From an uncultured Dehalococcoidia bacterium (GTDB lineage Bacteria; Chloroflexota; Dehalococcoidia; SZUA-161), in the NCBI GenBank assembly GCA_964524995.1, contig CAZGDV010000004.1:1-55738 (forward strand): 55,738 bases of DNA, read 5' to 3'. Numbering within the stretch: position 1 is the stretch's first letter; every line of letters begins with the position of its first letter. This document shows, in pieces, positions 16,413 to 54,915 of the stretch. The position numbers were made by a program, and so were the translations under genes. The notes below the pieces were generated by a model. It did no database searches. It had not been told where the DNA came from and saw only the letters and a list, made by a program, of their open reading frames with translations.

Positions 16413-16419
16413 GGAGACG

Positions 16420-28303: not shown

Positions 28304-28314
28304 TCCTACCTGGG

Positions 28315-29171: not shown

Positions 29172-29224
29172 ACCGTTTCCCAGTCAACCACCGTCCGTAT
29201 GAGTCATCGCCGCAAGGCAAGAGA

Positions 29225-30120: not shown

Positions 30121-30240
30121 TGGGACAGGTCTGCATACGAGTGATGGATGGAGCCACTCGGGACTTCGGTACAGCCGTTCACTTCGTGTGCGAAGCGCAA
30201 ATACTACAGAGGCAACTTTCTGAGAGAATGAGGGTGTGAA

Positions 30241-31200
30241 ATGACTAGACGGGGGCTCAAGCTGACGAGGCGACTCATACTGAGTGTAGCCGCACTTGTG
30301 CTGGTTATAGTTCTTCTCACGTTGAATATCCGTGTGGCACCGGTTTCCGTCGAGCCTCTGGTGGCATTGGGCTATGGCTATGGGGGAGGCATCGTCATCG
30401 TTCCCCCGACTCCTACAGCGACTCCCTTGCCCACCGCGACACCGGCGGCTACCAGTTCCCCCACACCCACAGCGACGCCGGCGGAATCGCCCGGCCCCAG
30501 CCCCACTGTAACCCCGGCCCCTACGCCTACTCCTACCGGCGTCACACCTTCGCCAACGCCAGCGGAACGGCCTCTCGTGACCGAAGACCTCGTGGGCAGG
30601 GTCAGTGACCTCGGCTTCGCGCTGGAAGACATCGAGGTCAGGACTGACGACGGTCAGCTGGTCCTGCGGATAGCCGAGTTCACTCATATGGAAACCCAGG
30701 ACGGTGTGCCGCCCAGCTACCTCGATGTCTCGGAGGTCATCGATGCACCAGCGATGCCACCCAATCTGGTGCTGATCGGCAATGCCTACAACTTGCATGG
30801 TGACCAGGCAGAATTCGATCCGCCGATCGAGCTGTCGCTGACATATGACCCTGCAGAACTCCCAGACGGCGTCGACGAAGCCGATCTGGCCATTGCATAC
30901 TACGACAGCGAGGCTCAGGCCTGGGTCTTTCTGGAATCCGTAGTCGATACCACGTTGCATACAGTCACTTGTAAGGTGAGGCATCTTACGGTGTTCGCAA
31001 TACTGGGAACGAAAGCGCAAGTGCCCACGCCTACTTCGCCGGTGCCCACGCCAACAGCAACGCCTGCGCCACCATTCAACGTGTGGATCGTCATCGGCCC
31101 CATACTGGCCCTCCTCGCGCTCGCAGGAGTAGCCTACTACTTCCTTGTCGATGAGTACACCAGGAGGAAGTGGATGAAGCGTCTGCTGAGGCGAGCGTAG
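30241..31200 (+). CDS. Membrane-anchored surface protein: N-terminal signal/TM, Pro/Thr-rich linker, ZU5/GPS-like beta domain, second PT linker, C-terminal TM and basic tail
   Basis: TRRLIL then a hydrophobic stretch; (PTPT)n linkers; FDPPIELSLTYDP..LP.GVDE.DL.IAYYD...W..LESVVD...TV...V.HLTVFAIL; TM followed by RRKWMKRLLRRA. Confidence 0.85.
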   Translation: MTRRGLKLTRRLILSVAALVLVIVLLTLNIRVAPVSVEPLVALGYGYGGGIVIVPPTPTATPLPTATPAATSSPTPTATPAESPGPSPTVTPAPTPTPTGVTPSPTPAERPLVTEDLVGRVSDLGFALEDIEVRTDDGQLVLRIAEFTHMETQDGVPPSYLDVSEVIDAPAMPPNLVLIGNAYNLHGDQAEFDPPIELSLTYDPAELPDGVDEADLAIAYYDSEAQAWVFLESVVDTTLHTVTCKVRHLTVFAILGTKAQVPTPTSPVPTPTATPAPPFNVWIVIGPILALLALAGVAYYFLVDEYTRRKWMKRLLRRA

Positions 31201-31331
31201 CGGAGGCCGAGGAGCGGGGCGGCTCACTTCGAGAAAGCAGGAGCGGCGGAGTGAGACTCAAACGGCACGGAGAGGGATCGAAGCCTTAGGCATGGCTCCA
31301 GGCGCCCGCCGGTCAATAGTCCTAGGCATGA

Positions 31332-31469
31332 GACATTCTCGGAGCGCTTCCGCCGAATGTCCTCTCCTTTCCCACCAATGGCTTGTCCTCCGAGTCCGAA
31401 GGGATCGGCTCGGGGGACAAGCCCCTAGGCCACCCGACGACCTGGGCCCTTTCCCGAGGCAGAGTCGTC
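31332..31469 (+). other. Cluster of three GC-rich stem-loops between the surface-protein and GT-C genes
   Basis: GACATTC..CGGA-GCGCT-TCCG..GAATGTC (31332-31361); ~19-bp stem 31380-31423; GACGAC/GTCGTC stem 31436-31469; no U-tract. Confidence 0.6.
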
Positions 31470-31499
31470 CCTTGGGCTTCAAGGTCTGGTCCATGTGAG

Positions 31500-32969
31500 A
31501 TGGCGACGTTAGCTCCATCCGGCAGCTTGCCCAGTCGGCTCCCCAAGCTCGTCATTGTTGCCATACTGATACTGGCCGTTTTCATGGCCAGTATCCCGCA
31601 CTGGAACTACAGCTACCCACTCCACATAGACGAGTGGTGGCACCTCGGTGACTCGGTGAGTCTTGCAGAGACAGGGCATGTTCCGTTCCCCAACTTCTTC
31701 GAAGCCGGTACACACGTGTGGCCTGACCGAGAGTTGGGCTTTCACCTCCTCCTCTCGCAAATCAAGATATCAACCGGCGCCTCTTGGCTGGTCTTGCCCC
31801 TCATCCTGCCCTCCCTGATCCTGGCAATCCTGGTCGTGCAGTTATATGCCCTGGGCAGACGCGAGGGTTGGGGCCTCTGGGCAGCCTTCATAGTCGCCCT
31901 TATCCCCACAACCACCAGGTTTTTGGGGCCGGCTTTCCTGGTTCCCGTAGCGGTCGGACTAGTCTTCATTCCCGCGACCATGTTCGTCCTGCGGAATCTC
32001 ATGAATGACTGGAAGGGTCTGGTCATTCTGTTGGTGATGTTCACCTCACTCATGCTGATCCACCCACCCAGTCTTGTGGCCCTGAGCGCCATAGTCGCAG
32101 TCCACTCGTTGGTACGCGCGATACCCGTAGGAGGGAGGCAAGATTCGAGGGCGCGCCGAACAGCGTTGGCGATGGCACTACTGGGTTCGACCTACATCAT
32201 CATGTGGGTCTGGGCACCAGATCTTGTCAGGCTCATCGTGGAGGAGGGGCTCGACCCCAACGCACACATATCGCTCCCTCCCATCAGCAACGCCCTATCC
32301 CAATTCGGATACATCCCGTTTGCCCTGGCCGCCCTCGGCACGGCAGTGATTGCCTATCGTGGAAACAGGGACGACTGGGCGCTTGTACTCTCCGTGATGC
32401 TGCTGCTGGGTTTTCAGACCATTTACCCGATCCTATACCTGGGCCCCGACATCGTATATGAGAGGGGTTGGCTCTACATATATGTGCTGACCGCGATGCT
32501 CGCGGGCATCTCTATGAGACACGTCTGGCAGTGGACGAGTACCGCTTTCAGCGGCAGGATGTGGGCACTGGGGGCATCCAGGGCATTGGCCATACTAGTG
32601 CTGATCGGCATGGTGTCCCAGAGCATTTACTCGCATCTGCGCGAACCCTACTATCAGGTCATCGACGACAGCACATACGAGGAGTTCCTGTGGATCAGGG
32701 ACAATGTGCCCAGCGAATACGACGTAGCCCTCGTGGACACCGGACTGGCCTGGGCGTTCGCCACCGTGACTGAGAAGGCAGTGTATGCTGCGGAAGTGGC
32801 TCCAAACTTCCATGAGAAGGGCCGTGCCGCCATGGAATTCCTGGCTGAGGGAGCCGAAGACACAGAATGGTTGAGGGAAAACGGGATAAGAATCGTGTAC
32901 ACGTCGGAAGATGTGAACAACGAGGACCTCTCCAGAATACGGAACAACACGTATCTTCTCCTAGACTGA
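31500..32969 (+). CDS. Polytopic membrane protein, GT-C-fold glycosyltransferase-like
   Basis: First external loop YPLHIDEWWH carries the acidic DE pair typical of GT-C enzymes; about 11-12 TM helices and a C-terminal soluble domain; track start 31383. Confidence 0.7.
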   Translation: MATLAPSGSLPSRLPKLVIVAILILAVFMASIPHWNYSYPLHIDEWWHLGDSVSLAETGHVPFPNFFEAGTHVWPDRELGFHLLLSQIKISTGASWLVLPLILPSLILAILVVQLYALGRREGWGLWAAFIVALIPTTTRFLGPAFLVPVAVGLVFIPATMFVLRNLMNDWKGLVILLVMFTSLMLIHPPSLVALSAIVAVHSLVRAIPVGGRQDSRARRTALAMALLGSTYIIMWVWAPDLVRLIVEEGLDPNAHISLPPISNALSQFGYIPFALAALGTAVIAYRGNRDDWALVLSVMLLLGFQTIYPILYLGPDIVYERGWLYIYVLTAMLAGISMRHVWQWTSTAFSGRMWALGASRALAILVLIGMVSQSIYSHLREPYYQVIDDSTYEEFLWIRDNVPSEYDVALVDTGLAWAFATVTEKAVYAAEVAPNFHEKGRAAMEFLAEGAEDTEWLRENGIRIVYTSEDVNNEDLSRIRNNTYLLLD

Positions 32970-34300
32970 AGGAAAGTGCGATTACGCCTATCAAATTTCG
33001 GACAAGTTCACCCGCTGCGCGGCTGATATCTCAGGAACGGTTCCTTCTTGTAGCTGCAGCTGTCGGCTATGCATTCGGCTACCTGTACCTCGTCTATATC
33101 GGCCGTGAGCTGGGCCCTCAGGACTTCGGCACATTCGGCTCTCTGTTCGCTGTCTTCTACATCGCTTGTCATATGGGACAGGCTGTCAGACAGGCCATCG
33201 CCCGGAGAGTATCCGAAGTCAATGCTAGGGTGGGACGCGAAGCGGCCCTGTCGACATACTCCCGGCTGGCATTCAAGCTAGGTCTTCTGTGCACAATCCC
33301 CACCGCGGCGGCAATAGCCGGATCCCACCATATCGGATCGTTCTTCCATGTCAGTCACACCGGCCCAGTGATCCTCTTGGGACTGTCCATTTCTATAGCC
33401 TTGATCCTTGACGTGCTGCTGGGATTGCTGCAGGGAATGCAGAGGTTCATGGCACTTGGGGTCAGCGGGTTTCTAGTCGGCCAGGGGTCCAAACTGGTGA
33501 TTGCGGCCCTCTTTCTCTGGGCCGGCTGGGGCCTGTCTGGGGCTGTCGGTGTTCTCCTGGCGTCGACGGCACTGGCTGCAGTCGTCGGACTGGCACTTGT
33601 TCGAAAAGACCTGCGAGGAGCACTTCGAACGCCCTCTTATAGCGATTCCGGTGTAACCGCAGTCCTGCTCCCCTCCACGTTCCTGGTCCTTTTCCTGGCC
33701 ATCCCGACCAGCGCCGACGTCATGCTCGTCTCGCACTTCTTCGACAGCAATGACGCCGGGGTCTACAATGCTGCCGCCACTCTCGGGAAGGTGGTTATCT
33801 TTCTGCCGATGGCCGTCTCGTTCGTCCTGCTGCCGAAAGCAGCGGAGAGCCATGCGCTGGGATTGAGTTCGAGGAAACAGCTGGCAAGGAGTCTAGTGCT
33901 GGCGGGTGCGCTGTCGGGTGGGGCCGCACTGATATGCTGGGCACTGCCCGATATGGTTGTGGGCATGTTCTTCGGTCAGGCCTACGTTGGGGCACAACAG
34001 ATCTGCGGCCTGTATGCGGCCGCCATGCTGCTCGTTTCGCTGAACTGCGTTCTGATGCACTATGGCCTGGCGACTCACAACCTTGCCTTGATGCTCTGGG
34101 CAGACACGATCAGCATCGCACAGGTCGTGGCGATTGCCATGCACCATGACTCACTGCTTCAGACCGTCATGGTGCTCCTTATCGGCAATGCCGTTCTGTT
34201 CGGGTCCAGCTTGCCATTAGCGCTCGTGCTCGAAGGGAAAGGAGTTGGTAAACCCCGTGAGGCAGAACCCAGTCCCGCCGAAGCTACTGTTGCACGCTGA
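32867..34300 (+). CDS. Oligosaccharide/polysaccharide flippase (Wzx/MOP-like)
   Basis: GR.LGP..FG.F..L motif, about 12 TM helices, D..LV.HFF....AG.Y.AA..LGK...F.P; start codon unresolved. Confidence 0.85.
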   Translation: MVEGKRDKNRVHVGRCEQRGPLQNTEQHVSSPRLKESAITPIKFRTSSPAARLISQERFLLVAAAVGYAFGYLYLVYIGRELGPQDFGTFGSLFAVFYIACHMGQAVRQAIARRVSEVNARVGREAALSTYSRLAFKLGLLCTIPTAAAIAGSHHIGSFFHVSHTGPVILLGLSISIALILDVLLGLLQGMQRFMALGVSGFLVGQGSKLVIAALFLWAGWGLSGAVGVLLASTALAAVVGLALVRKDLRGALRTPSYSDSGVTAVLLPSTFLVLFLAIPTSADVMLVSHFFDSNDAGVYNAAATLGKVVIFLPMAVSFVLLPKAAESHALGLSSRKQLARSLVLAGALSGGAALICWALPDMVVGMFFGQAYVGAQQICGLYAAAMLLVSLNCVLMHYGLATHNLALMLWADTISIAQVVAIAMHHDSLLQTVMVLLIGNAVLFGSSLPLALVLEGKGVGKPREAEPSPAEATVAR

Positions 34301-34316
34301 AACGGAGGTGCCACAG

Positions 34317-34904
34317 GTGGGGCCCCTTGGCAGCGATACCATGCCACCGAGGAGGCAACCGGCGAGCGCTGTATTCCTGGACAGAGACGGCACGATAATG
34401 CGGGACGTGCACTACTGCCGCGATGTGAGGAATGTCGAGATACTGCCTGGTGTCGCACAGGGAATCAAGTTGCTCAACGACAGCGGGTTCAGGGTGGTTG
34501 TGGCAACGAACCAGTCCGGCATCGGCCGTGGTCTTCTCGATGAAGAGGTACTGAGGAGAATACACCAGCGCATGCTGCTGCGGCTGCTCTGGGAGGGTGC
34601 CATAGTCGATGCGATCTACCACTGCCCTCATGGTCCAGACGATAGCTGCGAATGCAGGAAGCCGAGGGCAGGGCTCCTCCGGCGGGCGGCGCAGGACCTA
34701 GACCTGGATCTCGAGAGGTCGTTCATGGTCGGCGACAGCCTGAGGGACATCGAGGCCGGGCGGGAGGCCGGTTGCCGAACGGCGATCGTGTGTTCCGACC
34801 CATACGCCTGGGAGGACCAGGGGGCGAGACCCGACTTTATCGGACACAGTCTCCTCGATGTGGCCGTGTGGATCATAGGGGCCAGGGTAGCGGGCTCAGC
34901 CTGA
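34317..34904 (+). CDS. gmhB: D,D-heptose 1,7-bisphosphate phosphatase (HAD IIIA)
   Basis: AVFLDRDGTI, VATNQSGIGRG, YHCPH....C.CRKP, SFMVGD...DIEAG..AG; GTG 34317 after GGAGG. Confidence 0.92.
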   Translation: MGPLGSDTMPPRRQPASAVFLDRDGTIMRDVHYCRDVRNVEILPGVAQGIKLLNDSGFRVVVATNQSGIGRGLLDEEVLRRIHQRMLLRLLWEGAIVDAIYHCPHGPDDSCECRKPRAGLLRRAAQDLDLDLERSFMVGDSLRDIEAGREAGCRTAIVCSDPYAWEDQGARPDFIGHSLLDVAVWIIGARVAGSA

Positions 34905-35510
34905 GGCTACGACAAGCTGGTTCAGGCCGAGCTCGAAGGTCTTGTAGCACTCGATTCTGAAGTGGCCATCCCCGGCAACTATTTCTTGCAGCGTCCGCTC
35001 ATTGTAGTTCGCCTGGTGTGGGCTGTACATCTCCAGTTCCTCGTGCTTGACCCCGAGCAATCGCTTGAATGCCCTAACGAGCCTGTCCCCAGCTGCAGAA
35101 GGTGTCGTGATGACCAGGTGGCCACCGGGTTTCAGCAATGATCGGCATTGCTTGAGCACCACGGTAGGATCGTGGAGATGCTCTATGACGGCGAGCAGCA
35201 CGATGGTGTCGAACTCCGATCGCACCACATCGAGGAGATTGCCATCCTGCTCGATATCGATACAATGAAATTCCCATTCCGGCTTCTGCTCACGCAACTC
35301 CCGTATCACGGCCTCCTGGATGTCTATCCCCACATATCTCTGGCCTCCGGCCAAGTAGTCTGCGAGCGAAGACTCACCGCCACACCCGATATCGAGCACA
35401 TCACCCTTGAGCCATGGTCTGACTTGAGCGCATCGCTTTCGGCTCAGGTACCGGGCGATAGTCCTCGCGTAGAGACCGGTCGCCAACCTGGTGTATCTGC
35501 CGTATGACAC
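34896..35510 (-). CDS. Class I SAM-dependent methyltransferase
   Basis: VLDIGCGG, YVGIDI, FDTIVLLAVIEHL, LKPGG.L.ITTP; probable GTG start at 35510 directly after the upstream stop (the track extension to 35762 overlaps another gene). Confidence 0.88.
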   Translation of the reverse strand: MSYGRYTRLATGLYARTIARYLSRKRCAQVRPWLKGDVLDIGCGGESSLADYLAGGQRYVGIDIQEAVIRELREQKPEWEFHCIDIEQDGNLLDVVRSEFDTIVLLAVIEHLHDPTVVLKQCRSLLKPGGHLVITTPSAAGDRLVRAFKRLLGVKHEELEMYSPHQANYNERTLQEIVAGDGHFRIECYKTFELGLNQLVVASG

Positions 35511-35511
35511 T

Positions 35512-38500
35512 TCACCACCCCAGCGAAACGTGATAGGGCATGAACCCATAAACGTTGAACGATATCTCCCCGAAGACATGTCCCAACGGCTTGTCAGCGA
35601 CCGACATCTCGCTCTCGCCGACCTGCACGTGTGTATAAGCGAAGTACGGTACAGGGTGCTGATAGTACGGATACACGTAGGAGTACACCTCACCCAGCTC
35701 CAGTTCCATATCGCGGAACGCCTCTCCGGTATTGTCGGCGCGTTTCTCGACAAGCTCTCCATTGAGGATCACATAGAAGACACCATGATCCCTGCCTACG
35801 ACGTAATGATTCATCCGCGTCTCCGTGGGCAGCGGCCGGCTGCAGAACACGACTTGCTCGCTTGTCCCCTCTCGGTGTCCCAGTTCGAGGCGAGGATATC
35901 CGGCTTGAGGAGAGTCCGCCCCCACTCCATAGAGTAATCGCAGGAACCATCCCTCCGGGTTCTCGCGTGTCGCCGAAGTGAAGCCGAACATCTCCAGCGG
36001 CTCGCCAGGCCAACCAGTCGGCATGAGCCCGAAGCGCACACTGAAGTCATCGGGATTAGCTGTAGCAGCTGGCGGCGCTACTTCGACAACCCAGGAGCTG
36101 AGAGCACTCTCGCCCTCGACGCTCTGCCACCAGCCGTCGGCCACCTCCATCGCCACGGGACCGGCAGAAACCGGCAGTGAGTCCTCATCCCAGCCCTGAA
36201 ACGTTGGGTTCTCCAACAGATTGCCCGGTCGCGACAACGTCGTCATGAGAGTCGGGCTCTTGATCTGCACTGAGCAATCACGATCCAGCACCACGCTCAA
36301 AGTCAGGAAGTCGACGCCATCCTCGGGCACCGTAGCGGCAAGGCTCATGAGGTGCCAGTTGCCATCGCCAGGATGGAAATCGGACCAGGCCCCACCTTCG
36401 CGATCCCATTCCATGCTCAGACGTACCGCCTTACCTGCATCGGCCCTCAGCATAGCCGAGAGCGTCGCCGTGTGTCCTATCAACGAGTCCGGATTCGGCA
36501 CGTTACAGACCAAGTAGCTCTCGTCGTCGTGTGAGTACTCCGCCAATGCAATCGTCTCGCCGGACTGCTCGACTACCCGGCTCACCGCCATCTCAGATTC
36601 GCCACGCAGGTCGATGAGCCAGCCGTCAGCCCACATATCGCCAGCATCTGTGAAAGGGCCTCCCCCAGCCGACCAGCGTTTCAAATCGCTGTTGGGTAAC
36701 AGGTTCCCCGTGTTCGATGTGACCTCACGGAAGTCCAGCTCGGACACCCACGCCAGAGTGGTCCTGGTGAACGCCAGCCCAACTCGTACAGCCTTTGCAT
36801 CCTGGGGTATGGCGATGGTGACCTCCCGACACTCGAGTTCCTCGGCAGCTGTGAAGAAGTCTCCCATCACGTACCCGCCTACATCGCTCCATATGAACGG
36901 CGCAACCGCTTCACAAAGCGCGGCCCTGGCCGTGACATTCAGAGTCACCAAGCGTCCCGCCAGCTCGCTCGCCTGGTCGGAGAGGTCCTGATAGAACTCC
37001 CCATTGCCTCCCCTGCCAGCGAACTCGATACGGGGCATGCTCCTCATGGGGGCCTGCTCTATTATCGGACCCTCGCGGAGGACATGAGTCGCCTCAGAGA
37101 GGTTTTTCGTCACGGCCTGGCTGCTGAGGAAGAGGTCGGGAATAATATCCGCGCCCCACGCCAGCTTCTCGTGCGAGGGATACGTGGAAGCCGAAACGAA
37201 CAACCGTGCGCCCGCGTTCTCGGGCTCGGCTACGAACTCCCTGGCGGCGTAGTAGACGCCATTGGTGTCCGCGCGGGCGCTCGCGACCTCCTGAGCTCCG
37301 GTCATCGTCCGGCCCATACTGAGCACCACCAGACAGCCGATCGCCAGTACTATTGCCACCTTGCGGAAGCGGCCCAAGCCCGGGTCGTTCTTGCCCGCCA
37401 AGCCTGCGAGGTCGGGGCGAAAACGTTGGGCAAGCAGTATGGCGAGCAGAGACACCACCGTCAGCGTAGGAATATAGGCATACCTTGACTGCGAGATCGC
37501 GTACGAAGTCGGTCTTACCAGAAGGAGCAGGAAGCTAAACGCCAGGCCCCCGAGCGCAACCAGCAATACCAGTGACCTTCTGCCACTGGGCGGTACGCGG
37601 AGCTGGAGAAGAAGCGTGACGACAGCGATCACCGCCACCGTGTTCCCTATCACGAGCCCGATTGCGGTCCCCGATGTCGGCGACAGCGAAGGCCATGTGA
37701 TCGGCACGAAGTAGACCATGTCATCGACAACGATTTCCGACGAGTAGACGGTGTTGTGTAGCAAGGCAGAGGAACCGAAATGAATGATGGTGCCCCAGAT
37801 AGCGCGCAGTATGTTCCCCGAGCTAAGGAGCTCGCCGGGCATCGACCTGGGGTCGAGGATCGCGAAAACGCCGAACGCAAGGAGGAAAACAGCGTAGACG
37901 CCGATTGTCAGGATGGCTGACCTCCGGACTGCATCGCCCATGGTAGCCCGATTGTGCCGCCATAGGACAAGGGTACCGGCGAACAGAAGCAGCGGGAATA
38001 CGACCCCAGCTTCGGTGAAGAACATCTGTATGAAGATGAAGAGGTAGGACAGATACAGCAAGGCCGGTCTCGAACTGCGCTGCCATTCCAGCAGGAACAA
38101 GACGGCCAGCAGTATGCAGGAGACCTGCAGAAGCACGTAAGTATGCACTGTCCATGCTATCGCGTCCAGATGCGTCGCGGCCGTGAGGAAGAGGGCAGCG
38201 ATGAACAACGAGAACAGAGCGCTTGGCGCCAGGCGTCGCACGAGCAGGAAGAGCAAGGTGGCATTGAGCGCATGCACTCCGATTGTGGTCAGGTGGTACA
38301 TGAGGAAGTTCGTGCCGAAGACCTTCCACTGCAGATAGACAACCGGGAAGGCGAGCGGCTGAAACCGCTTGTCGGACCCGAAGAACTCGAAGAAGAGGGA
38401 TCTCTTCAGATCTGCCATGCTCATGCCACCCTCACGGAAATTCGACATGAACATTAGATGGTCAGCACGAGGCAGATCGCTGAGCAAGGCAGCGTACAGT

Positions 38501-38658: not shown

Positions 38659-38664
38659 TGCAGA

Positions 38665-44598: not shown

Positions 44599-44671
44599 AG
44601 TTACAGAAAGACCATTGAGCTCGGTTGAAGCCGAGTTCGTTTGACTGGATAGTGAGAGCCGCTTTGACTGC

Positions 44672-48513: not shown

Positions 48514-48538
48514 GACTATCCCCTTTCATTCAAAATGG

Positions 48539-49336
48539 CTATGCGCTCATGGCGACTATCTTGTCAGCTCGGAGTACACGGACCCGAACGAATAAGCGAC
48601 CAAGATCATATGCCGCGGACAGCACTGACCCCAGGGTCAGTATCTTGGACCGGCCGTGCATCCTCTTGCCAAGCCGCACCGGCACCTCGGCGAATGTGAA
48701 ACCTGCACGTGCCCCCCTTACCAGGCATTCCGTCTGATACGTGAAACCTGTGGCCACGGGCCTGACCGCGTCGAGAACCTGGCGTCTATAGATGACATTC
48801 CCCGTTGTATAGCTGAACGTCGTGCCGAACAGCAGGTTCACTACATGCAGATAGAGCTTCGAGACGAAGCGCCGCTGTCGGCTGCGCACCTCTCTATTCG
48901 TCACGTACGGCACTATTATGTCAACTTGATCGAGAAGCGGCAGGTACCTCAGCAACTCCTCCGGCTCGTTCTCGGCATCCCCGGGGAACCAGGTAATTGC
49001 CGCCTTCGAGGAAGCTCGAATGCCGTCCAAGAAGCAGGTACCTATGCCCGCCGGTTTGCTGTGCTCCAGCACGTGAATCCGGGGCTCGCTCTTGGCAAAG
49101 GTGTTTGCGATGGCACCGGTCTTGTCGGTGCTACCATCATTCACCACGATGATCTCCCAATCCACTCCGTCCCGGCCAAGGACGCCGATCAGCCCGTCCA
49201 GTGCCAGGGGCAGGTTGCTTTCTTCGTTGAGCGCCGGTACTATCACGGTCAACGACTTCGAAGGTGGCGGGACCGGATTCGTGTCCTCACCTGTGGTGAA
49301 GAGCAGAACTGCTGTGCTATCGGCCTGGCTCTGCAT
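48539..49336 (-). CDS. GT2 glycosyltransferase, polyprenol-phosphate glycosyltransferase (DPM1/Ppm1-like)
   Basis: VIVPALNEE.NL, EIIVVNDGSTD.T, FPGDA (DXD variant), GF.YQTE.L.R, F.EVPV...R..G.SK. Confidence 0.87.
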   Translation of the reverse strand: MQSQADSTAVLLFTTGEDTNPVPPPSKSLTVIVPALNEESNLPLALDGLIGVLGRDGVDWEIIVVNDGSTDKTGAIANTFAKSEPRIHVLEHSKPAGIGTCFLDGIRASSKAAITWFPGDAENEPEELLRYLPLLDQVDIIVPYVTNREVRSRQRRFVSKLYLHVVNLLFGTTFSYTTGNVIYRRQVLDAVRPVATGFTYQTECLVRGARAGFTFAEVPVRLGKRMHGRSKILTLGSVLSAAYDLGRLFVRVRVLRADKIVAMSA

Positions 49337-49355
49337 GGTCGGTGTTCATTCTCCT

Positions 49356-50486
49356 TCAGTTTCTTAGTGCGCGGGTCACGATAGCTCCAACAAATGAGGC
49401 AATCGCCGGTGCTGCGGTCAATCCAGGGGATTCGATGCCAATGAGATTGACGAAACTGGGTAGTCCTCTTTCCACTTCGTCTCTGATAACGAAGTCTCTG
49501 AAGACATCATCGGGACCCTGCAACGTGGGACGTATGCCGGCCATCTCAGGCTCAAGGTCTTCAGCCTCCACAAACGGTAGAAACTCCACCACCGACTGGT
49601 AAAACAGCTCCCCCAGCCCGCAGTCGACGGAGTAGTCCTCGTCGTGAACATAGCGACTGCTTGGCCCGAGAAGGACTCTGCCGTCCAGCGTAGGCGTCGC
49701 GTGTATGCCTAGACCAGCGCCCGACGACCCCGGCAGCGGGTAGACGGGTCTCCCGATCAATCTGCCCTTCTGTGAACTGAGCCTGAAGTACTCGCCCTTA
49801 CACATGTGGATTCTGTATCCACAGTCATCTATGTCCAGACCCGCCGCCTCAGCCAGCTCGTGGCTCGCCAACCCCGCACAGTTCACCAGCACTTTCGTGT
49901 CGAAGGAGAAGCTGTCCCGGTCGTCCAAATGCACAGTGAAGCCGCCATTTCTGCGCTCAACGGCTTGAACCTTCGACCGATACACAACCTTCCCGCCCCT
50001 GCACCTCACTTTGGCCACGAAATGCCTCATCAGCGCGAAGACGTCGACTACGCCTGTTGACGGTGAAAAGAGGCCAGCCAAGGCAGTCACGTTTGGCTCC
50101 AGCCTCTTCACTTCCTGTCTCGACAGCAGCTCAAGGTCATCTACACCATTGCTCCTGCCCCTGTCGTGCAGTTCCTCCAGTTCAGCTACACGCTGCTGAT
50201 CAGTAACCACTATGATCTTGCCGGTCCTCTTGTGCGGGAGGTCATGCTTGCTGCACAGCCTGTACAGCATCTCTCTCCCTTCCACACAGGTCCTGCCCTT
50301 CAAGGAATCGGCCGGGTAGTATATCCCGGCATGGATAACCTGGCTGTTCCTGCTGCTGGTGCCAAGGCCATAGCCATCGTTCTTCTCCAGCACTACCACG
50401 ATTCTGTCATCCCTCGCCACCTCGGCTGCCACGGCGAGCCCAATGACGCCAGCCCCTACAACCGCTACATCAACGTGGGTAGTCAT
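49356..50486 (-). CDS. FAD-dependent oxidoreductase, L-2-hydroxyglutarate oxidase (LhgO) family
   Basis: DVAVVGAGVIG, EK..G.G.GTSSRNS.VIHAGIYY, KGEY, LG.H.T, GIRP, GIESPGLT; ATG 50486 (track 50516). Confidence 0.9.
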   Translation of the reverse strand: MTTHVDVAVVGAGVIGLAVAAEVARDDRIVVVLEKNDGYGLGTSSRNSQVIHAGIYYPADSLKGRTCVEGREMLYRLCSKHDLPHKRTGKIIVVTDQQRVAELEELHDRGRSNGVDDLELLSRQEVKRLEPNVTALAGLFSPSTGVVDVFALMRHFVAKVRCRGGKVVYRSKVQAVERRNGGFTVHLDDRDSFSFDTKVLVNCAGLASHELAEAAGLDIDDCGYRIHMCKGEYFRLSSQKGRLIGRPVYPLPGSSGAGLGIHATPTLDGRVLLGPSSRYVHDEDYSVDCGLGELFYQSVVEFLPFVEAEDLEPEMAGIRPTLQGPDDVFRDFVIRDEVERGLPSFVNLIGIESPGLTAAPAIASFVGAIVTRALRN

Positions 50487-50527
50487 ACTGTCGTTCGCCT
50501 CACGCACATGCGGCACGCTCCGAGCGC

Positions 50528-51538
50528 CTAGGCGATTCGCTCAAGCTGCAGCATCTTCACGTTGTAGTACCGTGGATCGTCCATCGGATCGGGTACCTTG
50601 CCTCCCTCGAACGCCTCGCAGAGCGACCGGATCGCGTCCTCTATCGTGTGCCTGGGCCGCCACCCAAGCTCTCTGAGTATCTTCTCGGAGGAGATGTGGT
50701 ACGATCGGGGATCGTCTGTCGCTTCCTGAACGACATCGATTTCGGCACGGCCCACTATTTCTCTGACCATCTTGGCGAGTTGGCTCACCGTGTGGTTCTC
50801 ACAGCCAGCGTTGAAGACCTTGCCGGCAACCAGTTCATCGGGCAGTTCGACAAGCTGGGCATACAGATCAGTTATGTCCTGGATGTTTATGTTCGGGCGC
50901 TTCTGTGTCCCTCCGATTACTTTGATGCGTCCGTTATTCACCGCGTGGTTGGTCAGGATATTGACGATGAGGTCCAATCGGAGACGAGGAGAATACCCAC
51001 AGACGGTAGCGGAGCGAATCACGACCGGCACGAAATCAGGCGATTGTCGGCTGAACAGCACCTCTTCGCAGAGGGCCTTGTATTTCGAGTAGTCTGTAAG
51101 GGGCTCCAGTGTCATGTCTTCGGTGACGTTCTCGACTTCCTTGATGCCGTACACGCTCGAGGTCGAGGCGTAGATGAAGCGCTTCACGCCGCTGTTCCTG
51201 CACACATCGACGAGGCCGAAGAAGGCATCATAGTTGATGGACTTGCCGAGGGCAGGATCGAGCTCAAAGCTGGGGTCGTTGGATATGCAAGCGAGATGGA
51301 GCACGCAGTCGCTCCCGGGAATTGCCTTCTCCAGCAAACCTATGTCCCTTATGTCTCCCTTTATCTGCACAAGTCTTGGATGATTCCGGACCTCGGCAAG
51401 CGCCTCTTCCCCGTACAGGTACAGGTCCAGCACTCTGACCTGATGTCCCCTTGCCAGGAGCTTCGGTACGAGGACACTGCCGACGTATCCCGCCCCCCCG
51501 GTCACCAATACATTCTGTGTTGCCGAAGTCATGGTCAT
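50528..51538 (-). CDS. NAD-dependent nucleotide-sugar epimerase/dehydratase (extended SDR)
   Basis: VLVTGGAGYVGS, HLA.ISND, YASTSSVYG, catalytic YSKYK; start 51538 or 51532. Confidence 0.92.
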   Translation of the reverse strand: MTMTSATQNVLVTGGAGYVGSVLVPKLLARGHQVRVLDLYLYGEEALAEVRNHPRLVQIKGDIRDIGLLEKAIPGSDCVLHLACISNDPSFELDPALGKSINYDAFFGLVDVCRNSGVKRFIYASTSSVYGIKEVENVTEDMTLEPLTDYSKYKALCEEVLFSRQSPDFVPVVIRSATVCGYSPRLRLDLIVNILTNHAVNNGRIKVIGGTQKRPNINIQDITDLYAQLVELPDELVAGKVFNAGCENHTVSQLAKMVREIVGRAEIDVVQEATDDPRSYHISSEKILRELGWRPRHTIEDAIRSLCEAFEGGKVPDPMDDPRYYNVKMLQLERIA

Positions 51539-51621
51539 CCGCCTTCCTCTCGTTCTCACTCGTTGCTTCATTAACTGTTGACCGTATGCGCAAGCCGTAA
51601 GTCTCAACCGCGCTTGTGCGC

Positions 51622-53157
51622 CTATTTCAGTAGCGTCGTTACGTACCTGGACAGCTGAACAGGGTCAACAACCGTTCTATTGCCGACAATGCGTATCGCG
51701 AGGGCGCCAACTGCGTTCCCAATGAAGCCAACTAGCTCGGGCGGAAAGCCAGCAGCCACACAAGGCGCTGTCACGGCGAAGTAGGCATCGCCAGCGCCTA
51801 TCCTGTCCACTGCCTCACGTGAGAACACCGGTACTTCCAGGAATCCACCGCTGTTGGCGTAGACCAGGGAACCACGATGCCCCCTGGTGACAACCGCCCG
51901 GTGGCAGCGCAATTCGCTAGCTATCCCGCACACGAGATCCTCCAGCGGGCTGCAATTGTCGTGAGTCGCGAGCCTAGCCTCCGTCTCATCTATGCACACG
52001 TAGTCCGCGCGATCATACCTGGTCACCAGATTGAAGCCCAAGTTTGCCGAATTGGTCTGAACATTGATGGCCAGGAACCTCGATTCATCGCAGAGTGCTG
52101 CGATTATCCGATCGTCTATGAATCCGTGGCCGTAGTCCGCGACAACGACCAAGTCATAGTCGGGGAGGCGCGACCGTAGATAGCAGGCCGCCTCGTGACT
52201 CACGATGTCCGGCAGCAGGTCAGTGCCAATGAACGAGACCTCGAACATCTTCCGTAACAGGTCGACTTCGACGAAGCGTCGTTTGACAGGCGTACAGGTG
52301 TCCGGGCGGCAAAACAACGTGGGCACAACGTTCGGTCTGAGGTGCCCACGTACGAAGCCTTCACGGGAGTCCTCACCACCCAGCACGGTGACCAGTTCCA
52401 CATCATCGCAGAACCCAGCAACGCAATTGGCTATGGCAAGGATGCCTCCCGCGAAGACCTCTTCATATAGGTACCTGGCCGGGATTAGTATCTCCTTGGG
52501 GGATTTCCCCATTGGGCTGCAGTAGTGGTACTCATCTATGATCGTGTCACCTATTACCAGTACCTTGAGCCCTTTGAGAGATTGAAGAAGATCGATGATT
52601 CCCTGTGGAGTGAATGAGCTGCGAAACTCGGTCAGGAAACCCCTCGCTTCCTCCGAGAAGACGTCGAAATGGTTATTCAGCAAACTTGTTGAACTGAAGG
52701 TTATGTCATCTGTGAAGTGAATGCGACCGCCAACGGACTCAACGGCTTGCTCCTCATCTACTATCTTGCCGGTGAGATCATTCTTGGCGTCCGCATACTC
52801 ATTGCCCTTCGCGTACACATCCGGCCTGAGCTTCAGTATTGTGTCAACCGCTATGGGCCCCTCGTTCAACGCCACATAGTCGACACACTCCAGTGCGGCG
52901 AGGGACTCGACTCTGAGTTGCTGGCCGAAGACCGGCCTGCCGGGGCCCTTGCCCACGTGTTCGTCCCTGGTAACCGTGACAACCAAGACATCCCCCTGTC
53001 GCTTGGCTGATTCGAGATGTCTTATGTGCCCCGGATGAAGCAAATCGAAGACTCCGTGACACTGCACCACGGCCTTACCTTGCTTCCTCAGGTCTTCGGC
53101 AATGGCACAGACCTCATCCAGCGACTTGAACTTCGAACCGTTGATGCCCTGCGTCAA
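51622..53157 (-). CDS. Bifunctional nucleotidyltransferase/PfkB kinase (HldE/RfaE-like, reversed domain order)
   Basis: N-terminal GVFDLLHPGH..KGPGRP, C-terminal VIGD.IID.Y...DYGHG...DRIGAGDAYFA. Confidence 0.9.
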   Translation of the reverse strand: MTQGINGSKFKSLDEVCAIAEDLRKQGKAVVQCHGVFDLLHPGHIRHLESAKRQGDVLVVTVTRDEHVGKGPGRPVFGQQLRVESLAALECVDYVALNEGPIAVDTILKLRPDVYAKGNEYADAKNDLTGKIVDEEQAVESVGGRIHFTDDITFSSTSLLNNHFDVFSEEARGFLTEFRSSFTPQGIIDLLQSLKGLKVLVIGDTIIDEYHYCSPMGKSPKEILIPARYLYEEVFAGGILAIANCVAGFCDDVELVTVLGGEDSREGFVRGHLRPNVVPTLFCRPDTCTPVKRRFVEVDLLRKMFEVSFIGTDLLPDIVSHEAACYLRSRLPDYDLVVVADYGHGFIDDRIIAALCDESRFLAINVQTNSANLGFNLVTRYDRADYVCIDETEARLATHDNCSPLEDLVCGIASELRCHRAVVTRGHRGSLVYANSGGFLEVPVFSREAVDRIGAGDAYFAVTAPCVAAGFPPELVGFIGNAVGALAIRIVGNRTVVDPVQLSRYVTTLLK

Positions 53158-54173
53158 TTCGTCACCTCACCCAGGGCAAGAACCTTGTTCCTGCCAAGGT
53201 ATGTGAACCATTCCTTCGTTGCCTCTTCGATTCTGTCGGGTGTCCAGACCGGCGCGTCTCTCCAGTATTCGATGTTGCGCAGCATCTCCCTGACGCCGTC
53301 GTCAAAGCTGACCTCGGGTTCCCAGCCTACCAGCCTACGTATCTTGGATATGTCCACGTGAGTACAGTCTGGCTCTCCCGGCCTCTTGGGAACGTAGACC
53401 ACATCTCCACCCAACAACTCGACCAAGCGATTAATGCTGTATGTGCCCCCACTGCCCACGTTGAATACCTCGTTCTGAAGGCCCGACTCCGCCGCCATCA
53501 CAAGCGCCCGAATGGCATCGGTGACATACACGAAATCGCGAGTCTGCGTGCCATCTCCCACGACGCTAAAGGGCTGATTGTGCAGCTTCTGTGCCAGAAA
53601 CACGCCGAACACAGCACCATAGGTGCCGGAAGTCCGCGAACGGGGCCCATAGACGTTCGCGAGGCGTAGCGAGACAACTGGAAGACCGTAGACCTTGCCC
53701 CAATGCATGACGCATTCCTCGCCGACGTACTTGGTCAGCGCATACGGGTACTCCGGCCGAATCGGTGCGGTCTCGGGTGTCGGGAACACATCGGGCACCC
53801 CGTAGCACGACCCCGACGCACTGTAGACGAACCGGGCCACTTCAGCGCGACGTGATGCCTCAAGCACGTTGACTGTGCCAGTCACGTTAGAGCGGTAGTA
53901 CTCCAGCGGCTGCTTGATCGAGGGGACGATGTCGGCCAGCGCCGCCACGTGGAAGACCCAGTCAACCCCCTCGAACAGGGGTTCTATGGTCTCGTACTCT
54001 GCGATCTCCACATTGCAGAAGTTGATCTGAGCGGTACGGGCCAGGTGAGATAGGTTGTCGAGGCGACCGGTTGAGAGGTTGTCCAGAATGACGACGTCAT
54101 GGCCACTGTTCGCCAATTGCTCAACCAAGTGGCTACCGATGAATCCAGCCCCTCCGGTTACTAGTGTCCTCAT
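53154..54173 (-). CDS. NAD-dependent nucleotide-sugar epimerase/dehydratase (extended SDR)
   Basis: LVTGGAGFIGSHL, DNLSTG, H.AALADIVPS, catalytic YALTK, NVYGPR, GDGTQTRDFVYV.D, RPGEP. Confidence 0.94.
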   Translation of the reverse strand: MRTLVTGGAGFIGSHLVEQLANSGHDVVILDNLSTGRLDNLSHLARTAQINFCNVEIAEYETIEPLFEGVDWVFHVAALADIVPSIKQPLEYYRSNVTGTVNVLEASRRAEVARFVYSASGSCYGVPDVFPTPETAPIRPEYPYALTKYVGEECVMHWGKVYGLPVVSLRLANVYGPRSRTSGTYGAVFGVFLAQKLHNQPFSVVGDGTQTRDFVYVTDAIRALVMAAESGLQNEVFNVGSGGTYSINRLVELLGGDVVYVPKRPGEPDCTHVDISKIRRLVGWEPEVSFDDGVREMLRNIEYWRDAPVWTPDRIEEATKEWFTYLGRNKVLALGEVTN

Positions 54174-54808
54174 TCCGAACAGATGCGTTCAAGAGTGGTT
54201 GTTCTCAAACACTTGGTGATAAGGTGACATAGCAGGAGGTGAACATCCTCGACCTGTTCCATACAGTGGCACGGTACGGTAATGCATATGTCGGCCATAT
54301 CCTTCAGCTCTCCACCATCGAATCCGGTGAAGCCAATCGTCGTTGCTCCGCTTGCCGCCGCTGCGTCCACCGCCAGCAGTACATTCCTGGAGTTGCCACT
54401 TCCGCTTATCGCAACCAGCACGTCGCCTGGTGAGATCCAGGCAACCATAGACTGGACGAATATCTGATCGTAGGACTCGTCATTGCTCCAGGCCGTAACA
54501 AGCGCGATGTTCTCACACAGGGACCTGGACTTGAACGGGGGCTTGCTTGGTACCATTGCACCCTTGCAGAGGTCCGAGGCAAAGTGGATGGAGGTAGCCG
54601 CCGATCCTCCGTTGCCGCAGGTGAATACCGTTTGCTGCTTCCAGCGCGCTTCCTCCAGGCGGTGGATCACCTGGCCGACCCTATCTATTGGCAACCGCCG
54701 TATCACGTCAACGACGTCGGCCAGATATGAACACACCCCCTCGGCAACACACGAACTGCTTGTGACGTATGTGGAGATGCTCTCCACAATAGAGCTTTCA
54801 GTGGTCAC
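54170..54808 (-). CDS. gmhA: SIS-domain phosphosugar isomerase (GmhA-like)
   Basis: CGNGGSAA..HF..D, TA.SND..Y...F, GDVL.AISGSGNS.NV..A, G..GG.L; GTG 54808 after AAGGA (track start 54883). Confidence 0.88.
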   Translation of the reverse strand: MTTESSIVESISTYVTSSSCVAEGVCSYLADVVDVIRRLPIDRVGQVIHRLEEARWKQQTVFTCGNGGSAATSIHFASDLCKGAMVPSKPPFKSRSLCENIALVTAWSNDESYDQIFVQSMVAWISPGDVLVAISGSGNSRNVLLAVDAAAASGATTIGFTGFDGGELKDMADICITVPCHCMEQVEDVHLLLCHLITKCLRTTTLERICSE

Positions 54809-54915
54809 GTGACAGTTCCTTCCCCGTGAGGCCACCCTGCGCCGAGTGTAGTGCGCAGGTGTCCAACCCAAGTCGAAGTCCAAGCATTCGCGAGTCCATC
54901 ACACATTCAGACAGA

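Follow-up and report, generated by a model that had tools for sequence, protein, structure and literature searches.

A candidate envelope glycosylation locus with heptose-pathway, transketolase and radical SAM genes in an uncultured Dehalococcoidia bacterium

The stretch of DNA analysed in this study (the window; 55,738 nucleotides of contig CAZGDV010000004.1, from an uncultured Dehalococcoidia bacterium of the Chloroflexota phylum) carries a 25-kb set of genes predicted to serve envelope glycosylation. Listing of open reading frames (ORFs) and scans with Pfam and NCBIfam models place them in two convergent operons, at 30241-34904 on the plus strand and 54883-34896 on the minus strand, which meet tail to tail at 34896/34904. 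The genes of the plus operon encode, in this order, a Pro/Thr-rich (PT-rich) protein of 319 amino acids (aa), a 489-aa polytopic protein, a Polysacc_synt/MOP flippase and a GmhB-type phosphatase. The first half of the minus operon comprises GmhA, a short-chain dehydrogenase/reductase (SDR1), HldE with reversed domains, a second such enzyme (SDR2), a DAO-family flavoenzyme and a short family 2 glycosyltransferase (GT2). It is followed by the N and C halves of a transketolase, a B12-radical SAM protein, an HD protein, two large membrane proteins of 1930/1977 aa and 970/1048 aa, and a class I methyltransferase. In the gene calls, 4-nt overlaps join GmhA to SDR1, SDR1 to HldE, the two transketolase halves to each other and the second half to the radical SAM gene, and a 17-nt overlap joins the radical SAM gene to HD, which indicates translationally coupled units.

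An earlier reading made without database searches (the sequence-only reading) had proposed a candidate for an undescribed surface-glycosylation system, with a gene list comprising sugar-nucleotide genes, one GT2, one flippase, three GT-C proteins and a PT-rich protein. All these genes were recovered where it had placed them by ORF listing, Pfam and NCBIfam, although its one-line list left the split transketolase, the B12-radical SAM protein, the HD protein, the DAO flavoenzyme and the methyltransferase unnamed, all of which are conserved. It had also noted that genes of conventional surface-polysaccharide and lipopolysaccharide (LPS) synthesis are lacking. Indeed, we found no Bac_transf/WecA-type, GT4, GT9, Wzy or Wzz domain in the 17 locus ORFs or in the main ORFs elsewhere in the window, nor any Kdo or lipid A domain in those scanned outside the locus, the scope being the window and not the genome.

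The 489-aa protein (31500-32969, plus strand; hereafter GT-C489) is a GT-C glycosyltransferase with an oligosaccharyltransferase (OST)-like fold, from a family without a Pfam model. PDB sequence and profile searches with it returned no match, and for the three large membrane proteins of the locus neither NCBIfam nor PDB sequence searches gave any useful match, so that structure prediction was needed. The AlphaFold (AF2) model of GT-C489, computed from a 50-sequence alignment, reached a pLDDT of 90.6 and a pTM of 0.90. In the Foldseek comparison with the PDB, 20 of the 21 best matches are STT3/AglB/PglB and the remaining one is AftA (TMq 0.59-0.70, E 3e-10 to 4e-7); DPY19, ALG9/12, ArnT and AftD come next, and the match probability to GT-C structures is 1.0. 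AftA, whose donor is a monophosphate, almost equals the OSTs in score. The catalytic acid of GT-C enzymes lies just after the first transmembrane (TM) segment, and directly after this segment H42, D44 and W46 are invariant among 50 homologues, with E45 conserved in at least 90%. About 70 homologues were found, nearly all from Chloroflexota metagenome-assembled genomes (MAGs) and without protein names, and none of them carries a precomputed Pfam domain. When 50 members were scanned against the Pfam GT-C families at E<1, the sole match was that of one member to GT-C_AftD (E 0.68), with no match to STT3. The WWDYG motif is absent from the sequence and from the invariant columns of the family, no DK/MI-type motif was found, and the C-terminal domain spans only about 100 residues; GT-C489 is some 200-350 residues shorter than the matched OST catalytic subunits (639-867 residues). 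Since an OST-like fold without WWDYG is combined here with the lack of a Pfam GT-C signal, we treat GT-C489 as a family beyond current sequence models. By its predicted structure it is OST-like in fold, yet its motifs and the Pfam scans do not place it in the OST family.

The larger of the two other GT-C proteins (38665-44457, minus strand; 1930 aa, or 1977 aa in the longest call) bears six concanavalin A (ConA)-like domains, namely a Laminin_G_3 domain (residues 766-926, E 7.7e-28) and five repeats of about 200 aa that Pfam identifies as GH16/ConA-like. Its N-terminal 653 aa were modelled by AF2 with a pLDDT of 86, and the Foldseek top 30 are all GT-C-superfamily membrane proteins at probability 1.0, 29 of them glycosyltransferases and one a subunit of the GPI transamidase complex. 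Only one close homologue of this region was returned by a word-indexed search, against 168 by an exhaustive one; seven of ten relatives tested against Pfam match PMT_2 weakly, one of them above the gathering score. The second protein (35512-38424, minus strand; 970 aa, or 1048 aa in the longest call) consists of a PMT_2/TMTC-like N-terminal membrane domain and an ectodomain of about 500 aa. It gives no direct Pfam or PDB match; its N-terminus has database-wide matches to proteins combining tetratricopeptide repeats (TPR) with PMT_2, and its family profile aligns with the PMT_2/PMT stretch of P0079 with an hhalign probability of 98.2% (E 6e-14). The GT-C identity proposed earlier is therefore upheld for all three proteins, by AF2 and Foldseek for GT-C489 and the N-terminus of the 1930-aa protein, and by profile homology to PMT_2 for the 970-aa protein. 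The description of both large proteins as lectin-bearing is borne out for the 1930-aa protein only. None of the three gives a direct Pfam match to PMT or PMT_2, the PMT_2 homology of the two large ones being transitive, and by BLAST, which detected no relatedness among them, they are not mutual paralogues.

The GT2 protein (48539-49336, minus strand; 265 aa) is of the DPM1/ArnC/GtrB type and is a predicted polyprenyl-phosphate sugar synthase. It matches Pfam Glycos_transf_2 with an E of 8e-23, its best solved relatives are the Pyrococcus DPMS (5mlz, 2.6e-10), ArnC and GtrB, the aligned residues 25-246 cover the whole catalytic domain, and a G-R-S-K motif lies near the C-terminus. NCBIfam matches to PgfS, ArnC and AglJ all fall under their equivalog cut-offs, and on this sequence evidence the enzyme is assigned to the DPM1/GtrB/ArnC type of polyprenyl-phosphate glycosyltransferases at the family level only. 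The flippase (32867-34300, plus strand; Pfam Polysacc_synt, E 6.8e-12) is of the MOP/Wzx type and probably starts near 32966-32990. It belongs to a flippase family other than those of characterised three-component systems, and its transport role is a prediction. In the comparison loci from other contigs, designated here by L numbers, a homologue with 51-54% identity lies directly downstream of that of GT-C489 in L044, L045, L046 and L048. Thus all three component types of the logic that the sequence-only reading had put forward (polyprenyl-phosphate sugar synthase, flippase and GT-C) are found here by homology or predicted structure.

GmhA, HldE and GmhB point to a heptose-nucleotide pathway. 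The GmhA-type sedoheptulose-7-phosphate isomerase (54170-54883, minus strand; its start may be the GTG at 54808) clearly has the SIS fold and family (SIS_2 E 3e-16; TIGR00441 E 3e-32, 111.8 bits against a cut-off of 209). HldE (51622-53157, minus strand), a predicted heptose-1-phosphate nucleotidyltransferase/heptose-7-phosphate kinase, has CTP_transf_like at residues 34-130 and PfkB at 198-493, an order opposite to the canonical one with an N-terminal kinase and a C-terminal adenylyltransferase; rfaE_dom_II (7e-30) and rfaE_dom_I (3e-26) both match under cut-off, and PRK11316 scores 140.8 bits against 521. Orthologues share 65-68% identity in L044 and L046, L048 has the same architecture, and the orthologues in Elusimicrobia are 42-43% identical. 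GmhB (34342-34904, plus strand), a heptose 1,7-bisphosphate 7-phosphatase of the HAD-IIIA type, is borderline with respect to NF006506 (E 2.3e-51, 173.9 bits against an equivalog cut-off of 178), and its homologues adjoin GT-C489 in L006 and GmhA in L013. SDR1 (53154-54173, minus strand) is a GalE-like nucleotide-sugar epimerase/reductase (Epimerase E 4e-62) with the UDP-glucose 4-epimerases 4zrm and 7ys8 as best PDB relatives. Neither SDR qualifies as HldD, since heptose_epim has a cut-off of 274.6 bits and they score 116.6 and 65.1, and GT9 is again absent from the scanned window ORFs.

SDR2 (50528-51532, minus strand) is predicted to be a Cj1427-like C4 dehydrogenase of nucleoside diphosphate (NDP)-heptose. 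Its best PDB relatives are 6vo6/6vo8 (E 1.8e-42), the next match standing at 1e-29 to 4e-29. Cj1427 is a ping-pong dehydrogenase that oxidises C4 of GDP-D-glycero-D-manno-heptose and regenerates its tightly bound NAD+ by converting 2-oxoglutarate to L-2-hydroxyglutarate (PMC10680097). The adjoining flavin adenine dinucleotide (FAD) oxidoreductase (49356-50516, minus strand; DAO E 2e-64) is of the L-2-hydroxyglutarate oxidase/dehydrogenase type: its best model is NF008726, L-2-hydroxyglutarate oxidase (245 bits; cut-off 299), and its PDB relatives are 3dme (3e-82) and 8w75 (2e-47), the latter presumably an L-2-hydroxyglutarate dehydrogenase. The SDR2-DAO gene pair is kept in L044 and L046, and from these homologies we infer that the flavoenzyme would recycle L-2-hydroxyglutarate and thereby drive the C4 oxidation by SDR2. 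Furthermore, genes for C4-type sugar aminotransferases (DegT; PseC/ArnB-like) flank or follow the SDR2 orthologues in L012 and L044, which is an independent pointer to a 4-keto product.

The tailoring genes downstream are less usual. The split transketolase (46754-48513, minus strand) has its N half at 47692-48513 (Transketolase_N 1.7e-39) and its C half, with Transket_pyr and Transketolase_C, at 46754-47695; the best NCBIfam scores of both halves are to genuine transketolases. At 54-63% identity, L010, L011, L012 and L042 have it linked to the radical SAM orthologue; in L048 it lies within the sugar operon, as does the N half alone in L044, where the contig ends. The enzyme may supply only sedoheptulose-7-phosphate, make a longer ketose phosphate for GmhA, or add a two-carbon unit to the 4-keto sugar. 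Transketolases make octulose-8-phosphate, and the octose of lincomycin uses the GmhA-like LmbN after a C-C bond-forming step (PMC5854111). Within the sugar operons of L046 (15544-17637) and L048 (8858-12623) we found pairs resembling the alpha and beta subunits of pyruvate dehydrogenase (PDH) E1, without E2 or E3; such stand-alone pairs suggest that thiamine diphosphate (ThDP) chemistry on a sugar is within the repertoire of the system. The idea drawn from L046, that an E1 pair replaces the transketolase/radical SAM/HD module, is weakened by L048, which has both pairs. The literature searched holds no paper joining transketolase, GmhA and radical SAM, or heptose, transketolase, radical SAM and gene cluster.

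The radical SAM protein (45267-46757, minus strand; Pfam B12-binding and Radical_SAM) is predicted to tailor a sugar or a lipid-linked sugar. AprD4 is its best PDB relative (9e-20 over 230 residues), followed by TokK, and all its NCBIfam matches are far under cut-off, the top ones including the lipid-modifying HpnJ, HpnR and ladderane radical SAM. Orthologues with 36-69% identity occur in at least six phyla, often adjoining GT2 and GT-C genes; a genome scan returned them at 36-63% identity from Omnitrophota, Elusimicrobia, Dehalococcoidia, Planctomycetota, Nitrospirae and others. The HD-domain phosphohydrolase coupled to it (44672-45283, minus strand; Pfam HD E 9e-12) has 2pq7 and YedJ as best PDB relatives, and its gene directly follows the radical SAM orthologue in L011, L012 and L042. 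OxsB/OxsA was considered as a match for this pair and dropped: neither appears in the PDB search, where AprD4/TokK and YedJ-like proteins are best, and the parallel is conceptual only. The methyltransferase (34896-35549, minus strand, start uncertain; Methyltransf_23/11/12, E 1e-16 to 1e-18) is a probable sugar O- or N-methylase with a 55% identical orthologue at the equivalent position in L042. In the region 34896-35762, a public call of 145 aa (about 34896-35333) would drop the GxGxG SAM-binding motif; we regard a longer ORF, which overlaps the end of the upstream GT-C gene, as more likely. The unusual monosaccharide of the sequence-only reading is made plausible by the Cj1427-like SDR2 paired with an L-2-hydroxyglutarate-oxidase-like enzyme, the conserved ThDP enzymes, the B12-radical SAM/HD pair and the methyltransferases.

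Co-occurrence in other genomes had been set beforehand as a test of the sequence-only reading, and the gene set passed it: the Chloroflexota contigs L042, L044, L046 and L048 keep large parts of it in order, with identities of 50-70%. Several metagenome assemblies contain the contig of the window again; L042 comes from a different organism, and shows the same order as the window, from GT2 through the transketolase halves, radical SAM, HD, a methyltransferase, the GT-C/LamG protein and the 970-aa GT-C to a last methyltransferase. Identities there are 60% for GT2, 61% and 58% for the N and C transketolase halves, 69% for radical SAM, 49% for HD, 46%/37% for the GT-C/LamG protein (1488 aa in L042), 52% for the 970-aa homologue and 55% for the last methyltransferase. 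L044 has the order GT-C489 (51% identity), flippase (51%), SDR1 (68%), reversed HldE (68%), SDR2 (68%), flavoenzyme (53%), DegT, GT2 (55%) and transketolase N (61%). L046 encodes a DUF1616 protein, GT-C489, flippase, SDR1, HldE, SDR2, flavoenzyme, the E1-alpha-like and E1-beta-like proteins, GT2 and a 706-aa protein, and L048 encodes DUF1616, GT-C489, flippase, SDR1, HldE, DegT, both transketolase halves and both E1 subunits. L045 and L006 combine GT-C489 with GmhA or GmhB and a flippase; L006 also holds three membrane proteins, two of which carry F5/8-type-C lectin domains. Overall, heptose-pathway genes lie within 10 kb of GT-C489 in seven of ten loci (GmhB only in L006, a SIS fragment only in L047), and a flippase is immediately downstream in five. 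No initiating phosphoglycosyltransferase or other gene for the assembly of lipid-linked oligosaccharides was found in the window or in L044, L046 and L048. Beyond the Chloroflexota, an Elusimicrobia locus (L012) runs SDR2-DegT-GT2-transketolase N and C-radical SAM-HD-HldE-GmhA and then a PMT_2 GT-C, and L011 runs transketolase-radical SAM-HD-HldE-GmhA. Of the Omnitrophota loci, L009 carries the radical SAM orthologue directly behind two PMT/PMT_2 GT-Cs, and L010 carries it directly behind the split transketolase, with a membrane and TPR protein downstream and a GT2 that is 34% identical. In the Dehalococcoidia locus L013, DegT-radical SAM is followed by GmhB and GmhA, and these by two surface proteins. 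Immediately past the flippase gene, on the other strand, an ORF of 175-200 aa without Pfam or NCBIfam match recurs in L044 (5286-5888), L045 (7057-7584), L046 (9807-10340) and L048 (3854-4426), all on the minus strand; either a small gene is conserved here, or the gene calls repeat the same artefact.

The PT-rich protein (30241-31200, plus strand; 319 aa) is, from its sequence, a doubly membrane-anchored surface protein and a candidate acceptor of O-glycosylation. It has no Pfam match. A TM segment at the N-terminus and a TM anchor at the C-terminus enclose two PT linkers with a globular domain between them. The linkers (residues 55-107 and 260-278) are 66-75% Pro/Thr/Ser; the first has 53 residues, 66% of them Pro or Thr, with 21 Ser/Thr. 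No N-X-S/T sequon occurs in the 319 aa, and PT-rich linkers without sequons suggest O-glycosylation. In L013 (4709-6907), two neighbouring surface proteins are encoded beside GmhA/GmhB, one of 266 aa with a Tyr/Gly-rich stretch, the other of 462 aa with a (TP)n linker of about 150 residues and a C-terminal domain and anchor 43% identical to those of the PT-rich protein; a PFN(V/M)W C-terminal membrane anchor is common to the latter two. Another possible partner is the DUF1616 protein, whose gene is immediately upstream of GT-C489 in six of the ten loci (L005, L006, L045, L046, L047 and L048). It has four TM segments and a beta-rich domain, and is fused to GT-C489 in P0038 (625 aa). The PT-rich protein itself is not a diverged DUF1616 protein, having no similarity to it and a different architecture. 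In the only paper on DUF1616 that we found, the Haloferax member HVO_2173 is an AglB-dependent N-glycoprotein (PMC8241124).

Taken together, we would give an even chance to the reading that the locus is a conserved envelope glycosylation system of the three-component type in a monoderm-type bacterium of the Chloroflexota, supplied by a pathway to a tailored 4-keto-heptose. From what is shown above, namely gene content, homologies, folds and synteny, we infer each chemical step, as well as the acceptor, as follows. GmhA would isomerise sedoheptulose-7-phosphate, and the kinase half of HldE, GmhB and then the nucleotidyltransferase half of HldE would yield an NDP-heptose, probably ADP-heptose. 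SDR2 would oxidise it at C4, passing the hydride to 2-oxoglutarate, and the flavoenzyme would re-oxidise the L-2-hydroxyglutarate formed, pulling this step forward. The 4-keto-heptose could then be reduced or epimerised by SDR1 and further modified by the transketolase with the B12-radical SAM/HD unit and by the methyltransferase. The transketolase may add two carbons, or merely supply sedoheptulose-7-phosphate; the radical SAM protein may catalyse C-methylation or radical deoxygenation; and in the sister loci a C4-aminotransferase or a PDH-E1-like pair may act at this stage instead or additionally. GT2 would transfer the finished sugar to polyprenyl phosphate and the MOP protein would flip the lipid-linked sugar. 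Outside the membrane, GT-C489 may transfer it to Ser/Thr of PT-rich anchored proteins or to the DUF1616 partner, and the two large GT-Cs, one with six lectin-like domains, may add further residues to the growing glycan. A bolder version of this scheme seems unlikely to us: that SDR2, the L-2-hydroxyglutarate oxidase, the split transketolase (or E1 pair) and the B12-radical SAM/HD pair make a C4-branched or chain-extended, radical-tailored sugar (C8-C9) from ADP-heptose, the first heptose-type donor linked to polyprenyl phosphate, which in Chloroflexota would serve protein O-glycosylation by GT-C489, an enzyme most often paired with or fused to DUF1616, the cassette having spread laterally to Elusimicrobia and Omnitrophota.

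Several observations weigh against the three-component reading. The 6vo6 entry, on which the role of SDR2 leans, is presumably Cj1427, the C. jejuni heptose C4-dehydrogenase; its PDB molecule name, 'putative sugar-nucleotide epimerase/dehydratease', is consistent with this but not proof. GmhA, HldE, the L-2-hydroxyglutarate oxidase and GT2 all score under their NCBIfam equivalog cut-offs, and their substrates may therefore differ. GT2 has no predicted C-terminal TM helix. MOP-type flippases in most systems carry diphosphate-linked oligosaccharides, and GT-C489, as modelled, most resembles OSTs, whose donors are of that kind. L048 carries the transketolase and E1 pairs in tandem, so the two are not simple substitutes and the role of the transketolase is ambiguous. 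Moreover, of the ten GT-C489 loci only that of the window has the PT-rich gene adjoining, and the lectin-like ectodomains of the large GT-C suggest a glycan acceptor at least equally well. The acceptor, whether PT-rich protein or glycan, is the weakest link.

This last point opens onto a reading that we consider less likely than not, in which the same machinery serves a cell-wall or S-layer-associated polysaccharide or an attached glycan, the GT-Cs decorating a polymer after export as Gtr, GT136 and YfhO do. Besides the non-conserved position of the PT-rich gene, it is favoured by the Laminin_G_3 domain and five ConA/GH16-like repeats of the 1930-aa GT-C and by the F5/8-type-C lectin domains of sister-locus membrane proteins, and a precedent exists in the GT136 prototype, whose C-terminal carbohydrate-binding module (CBM) binds its glycan substrate (PMC11127046). 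Against it, the 55-kb window holds no GT4, Wzy, ABC exporter or phosphoglycosyltransferase, a PT-rich homologue is again found beside GmhA/GmhB/radical SAM in L013, and GT-C489, whose ectodomain is small, resembles OSTs that modify proteins. Could GT-C489 then be a true OST, acting on a preassembled lipid-diphosphate oligosaccharide built elsewhere, with only the two large GT-Cs using the product of GT2? The 20 OSTs among its 21 top Foldseek matches, the Wzx/MOP type of the neighbouring flippase and the AglB-dependent N-glycoprotein within the partner family DUF1616 (PMC8241124) speak for it. Yet we judge it quite improbable: the small C-terminal domain without WWDYG or DK/MI-type motif, the shortfall in length, the lack of STT3 signal in 50 members and the near-equal score of the monophosphate-using AftA all argue otherwise, as do the absence of initiating phosphoglycosyltransferase and of cytoplasmic GT4/GT2 elongation genes from the window and the sister loci, and the absence of sequons from the PT-rich neighbour.

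The nature of the sugar can be questioned as well. It may be an ordinary heptose epimer, with a transketolase that only supplies sedoheptulose-7-phosphate and a radical SAM/HD pair acting elsewhere, for instance on the lipid carrier, in which case the unusual monosaccharide would have been overstated. Sedoheptulose-7-phosphate is among the normal products of the genuine transketolases that both halves resemble most, the two pairs of L048 speak against simple alternatives, and lipid-modifying enzymes are among the top, if weak, radical SAM matches. However, the transketolase-radical SAM-HD genes travel with the cassette as a coupled unit at 54-69% identity across phyla, the PDH-E1-type pairs without E2/E3 (L046, L048) cannot supply sedoheptulose-7-phosphate, and two SDRs, a methyltransferase and sister-locus aminotransferases already imply a tailored sugar; we deem the ordinary heptose a minority possibility. 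Much less credible is the view that the heptose genes serve a conventional LPS core or a soluble metabolite (septacidin/hygromycin- or lincosamide-like) and are merely clustered with unrelated membrane proteins. GmhA, HldE and GmhB are indeed classic LPS-core heptose genes, natural-product clusters often contain radical SAM proteins, ThDP enzymes and methyltransferases, and the lincomycin octose uses the GmhA-like LmbN (PMC5854111). But GT9, Kdo and lipid A genes are lacking, as are aglycone genes (polyketide synthase, nonribosomal peptide synthetase, aminocyclitol); the homologues come from Chloroflexota/Dehalococcoidia MAGs; and at least four other contigs keep GT2, flippase and GT-C in synteny with the sugar genes. 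Gene content and synteny led us to reject both the LPS-core and the secondary-metabolite readings.

Among known systems, the locus is closest in logic to the three-component ones, GtrA/GtrB/GtrC, ArnC/ArnEF/ArnT, CsbB/GtcA/YfhO and polyprenyl-phosphoribose synthase/MATE/GT136 (PMC11127046). As in these, genes occur together for a cytoplasmic GT2 predicted to make a polyprenyl-phosphate sugar, for a putative flippase and for a GT-C that would face outward; as in GT136 ORF12, one GT-C has carbohydrate-binding-type domains; and as in Arn, SDR oxidation, with an aminotransferase in sister loci, would precede lipid loading. Unlike these systems, the locus has a MOP/Wzx-type flippase and not GtrA, EamA, SMR or MATE, three GT-Cs and not one, a GT2 without C-terminal TM helices, a predicted donor whose heptose-nucleotide pathway would include tailoring by ThDP and radical SAM enzymes, and a Chloroflexota host without LPS-type genes in the window.

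Protein glycosylation offers further parallels. Haloferax volcanii has the Dol-P-mannose synthase AglD, the MOP-type flippase AglR and the GT-C AglS, next to an AglJ-initiated Dol-P-linked N-glycan. Its DPM1-like GT2, Polysacc_synt flippase and GT-C, delivering a single sugar to a surface glycoprotein, resemble our set, and its OST-like enzymes use monophosphate-linked donors. The host here is bacterial, the sugar would derive from heptose and not be mannose, and GT-C489 has no Pfam-detectable similarity to AglS/AglB. In protein O-mannosylation (actinobacterial Ppm1/Pmt, eukaryotic PMT) and in S. mutans PgfS/PgfM1/PgfE/PgfM2, a lipid-monophosphate sugar is used by a GT-C on Ser/Thr-rich regions. 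The invariant Asp and the Glu (E45, at least 90%) after TM1 of GT-C489 recall the DE motif of PMT, to which the two large GT-Cs are related through PMT_2; unlike PMT/Pgf, the locus has no MIR domains, no Pfam PMT match for GT-C489 and a different sugar pathway, and its acceptor is a candidate.

The predicted sugar chemistry, SDR C4 oxidation of an NDP-heptose followed by reduction, epimerisation or amination by partner enzymes, resembles the tailoring of capsular heptose in C. jejuni by Cj1427, epimerases and C4-reductases, for which an L-2-hydroxyglutarate-oxidase-like gene in the operon, as found here, is not reported (PMC10680097). Further differences from C. jejuni are that activation is probably ADP-beta (RfaE-type) and not GDP-alpha, that there is no cupin epimerase, and that the product would go to a lipid carrier and not to Leloir capsule glycosyltransferases. 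In routes that form C-C bonds of unusual sugars, such as the LmbR/LmbN octose route of lincomycin (PMC5854111), a transketolase/transaldolase or E1-like ThDP enzyme likewise goes with a GmhA-like isomerase, kinase, phosphatase and nucleotidyltransferase, and a 4-keto sugar could be the electrophile. No such reaction is known for a split transketolase on a nucleotide sugar, and the enzyme here may only supply sedoheptulose-7-phosphate. The radical SAM protein shares the B12-binding-type domain and radical SAM core with AprD4, which acts on a sugar, and with class B methylases (TokK, TsrM, CysS); unlike them it has an obligate HD partner, and the similarity is weak (E 9e-20 over 230 residues). 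Two-carbon branching by ThDP enzymes is known from YerE and AviB1/AviB2.

Each operon is preceded by a leader element. That of the plus operon (30083-30148, plus strand), reading GTCTGTTAAT...TCTAGACTT...GTGATGGA, has a matching counterpart at 54895-54953 on the minus strand; both take the form GT(C/G)TGTTAA...TCTAGACTT...GTGATGGA and lie at roughly similar distances from the likely start codons. The combination TCTAGACTT...GTGATGGA has two matches against none expected, by a post hoc test, and local alignment of the leaders scores 23 against 18 +/- 2.3 for shuffled sequences (about 2 sd), with a shuffle maximum of 30. Neither leader contains a sigma-70 consensus or matches an Rfam family, and the motif is absent from non-identical loci. 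From the shared promoter architecture of the sequence-only reading we thus retain a common motif, of weak statistical support and without a sigma-70 consensus. Both operons may be regulated by flanking genes. Two OmpR-type response regulators and a weak MarR-like ORF (27323-29992) closely precede the plus operon, and the minus operon has a MarR-like and an HTH_17 gene on its upstream side (from about 55271 to the window end), with L001 coordinates of 939-1487 and 432-680. A 396-aa Arg/Gly/Cys-rich ORF antisense to the PT-rich gene (30037-31227, minus strand) is probably an artefact of the GC-rich PT-coding repeat.

Elsewhere in the window, a type IV pilus/type II secretion-like cluster (10596-17865) encodes a PilB-type ATPase, a PilC-type platform protein, PilO and a PilM/PilN fusion, as well as an N_methyl pilin-like ORF (13989-14504). 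The sequence-only reading had this cluster in mind when naming pilin as an acceptor; we found no link between it and the glycosylation genes. One sensor histidine kinase of 3132 aa, encoded at 18079-27477, combines 13 PAS domains with GAF domains; 5015-8137 and 8567-10126 encode two more PAS kinases, which have receiver domains; and tRNA-Lys(UUU) at 3955-4026 is the sole RNA gene of the window by ARAGORN and Rfam.

To call the system undescribed would overstate the case, its mechanism class being well known; the sugar cassette and the GT-C489 family are what is new. In the literature searched, a heptose-derived lipid-linked donor, the coupling of SDR2 to an L-2-hydroxyglutarate oxidase, the transketolase-radical SAM-HD module and a Pfam-less, OST-like GT-C family with a DUF1616 partner appear to be undescribed. 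The locus suggests a metabolic solution to the 2-oxoglutarate-consuming chemistry of Cj1427, namely a built-in recycler of L-2-hydroxyglutarate. It also hints that transketolase/E1-type ThDP enzymes and a B12-radical SAM/HD pair may have a new role in the tailoring of nucleotide- or lipid-linked sugars. Furthermore, a GT-C family missed by sequence databases would enlarge the catalogue of glycosyltransferases with lipid-linked donors available for glycoengineering. The envelopes of Chloroflexota and Dehalococcoidia are poorly understood, often peptidoglycan-poor and without cultured genetic models, and the locus gives work on their surface sugars a concrete target.

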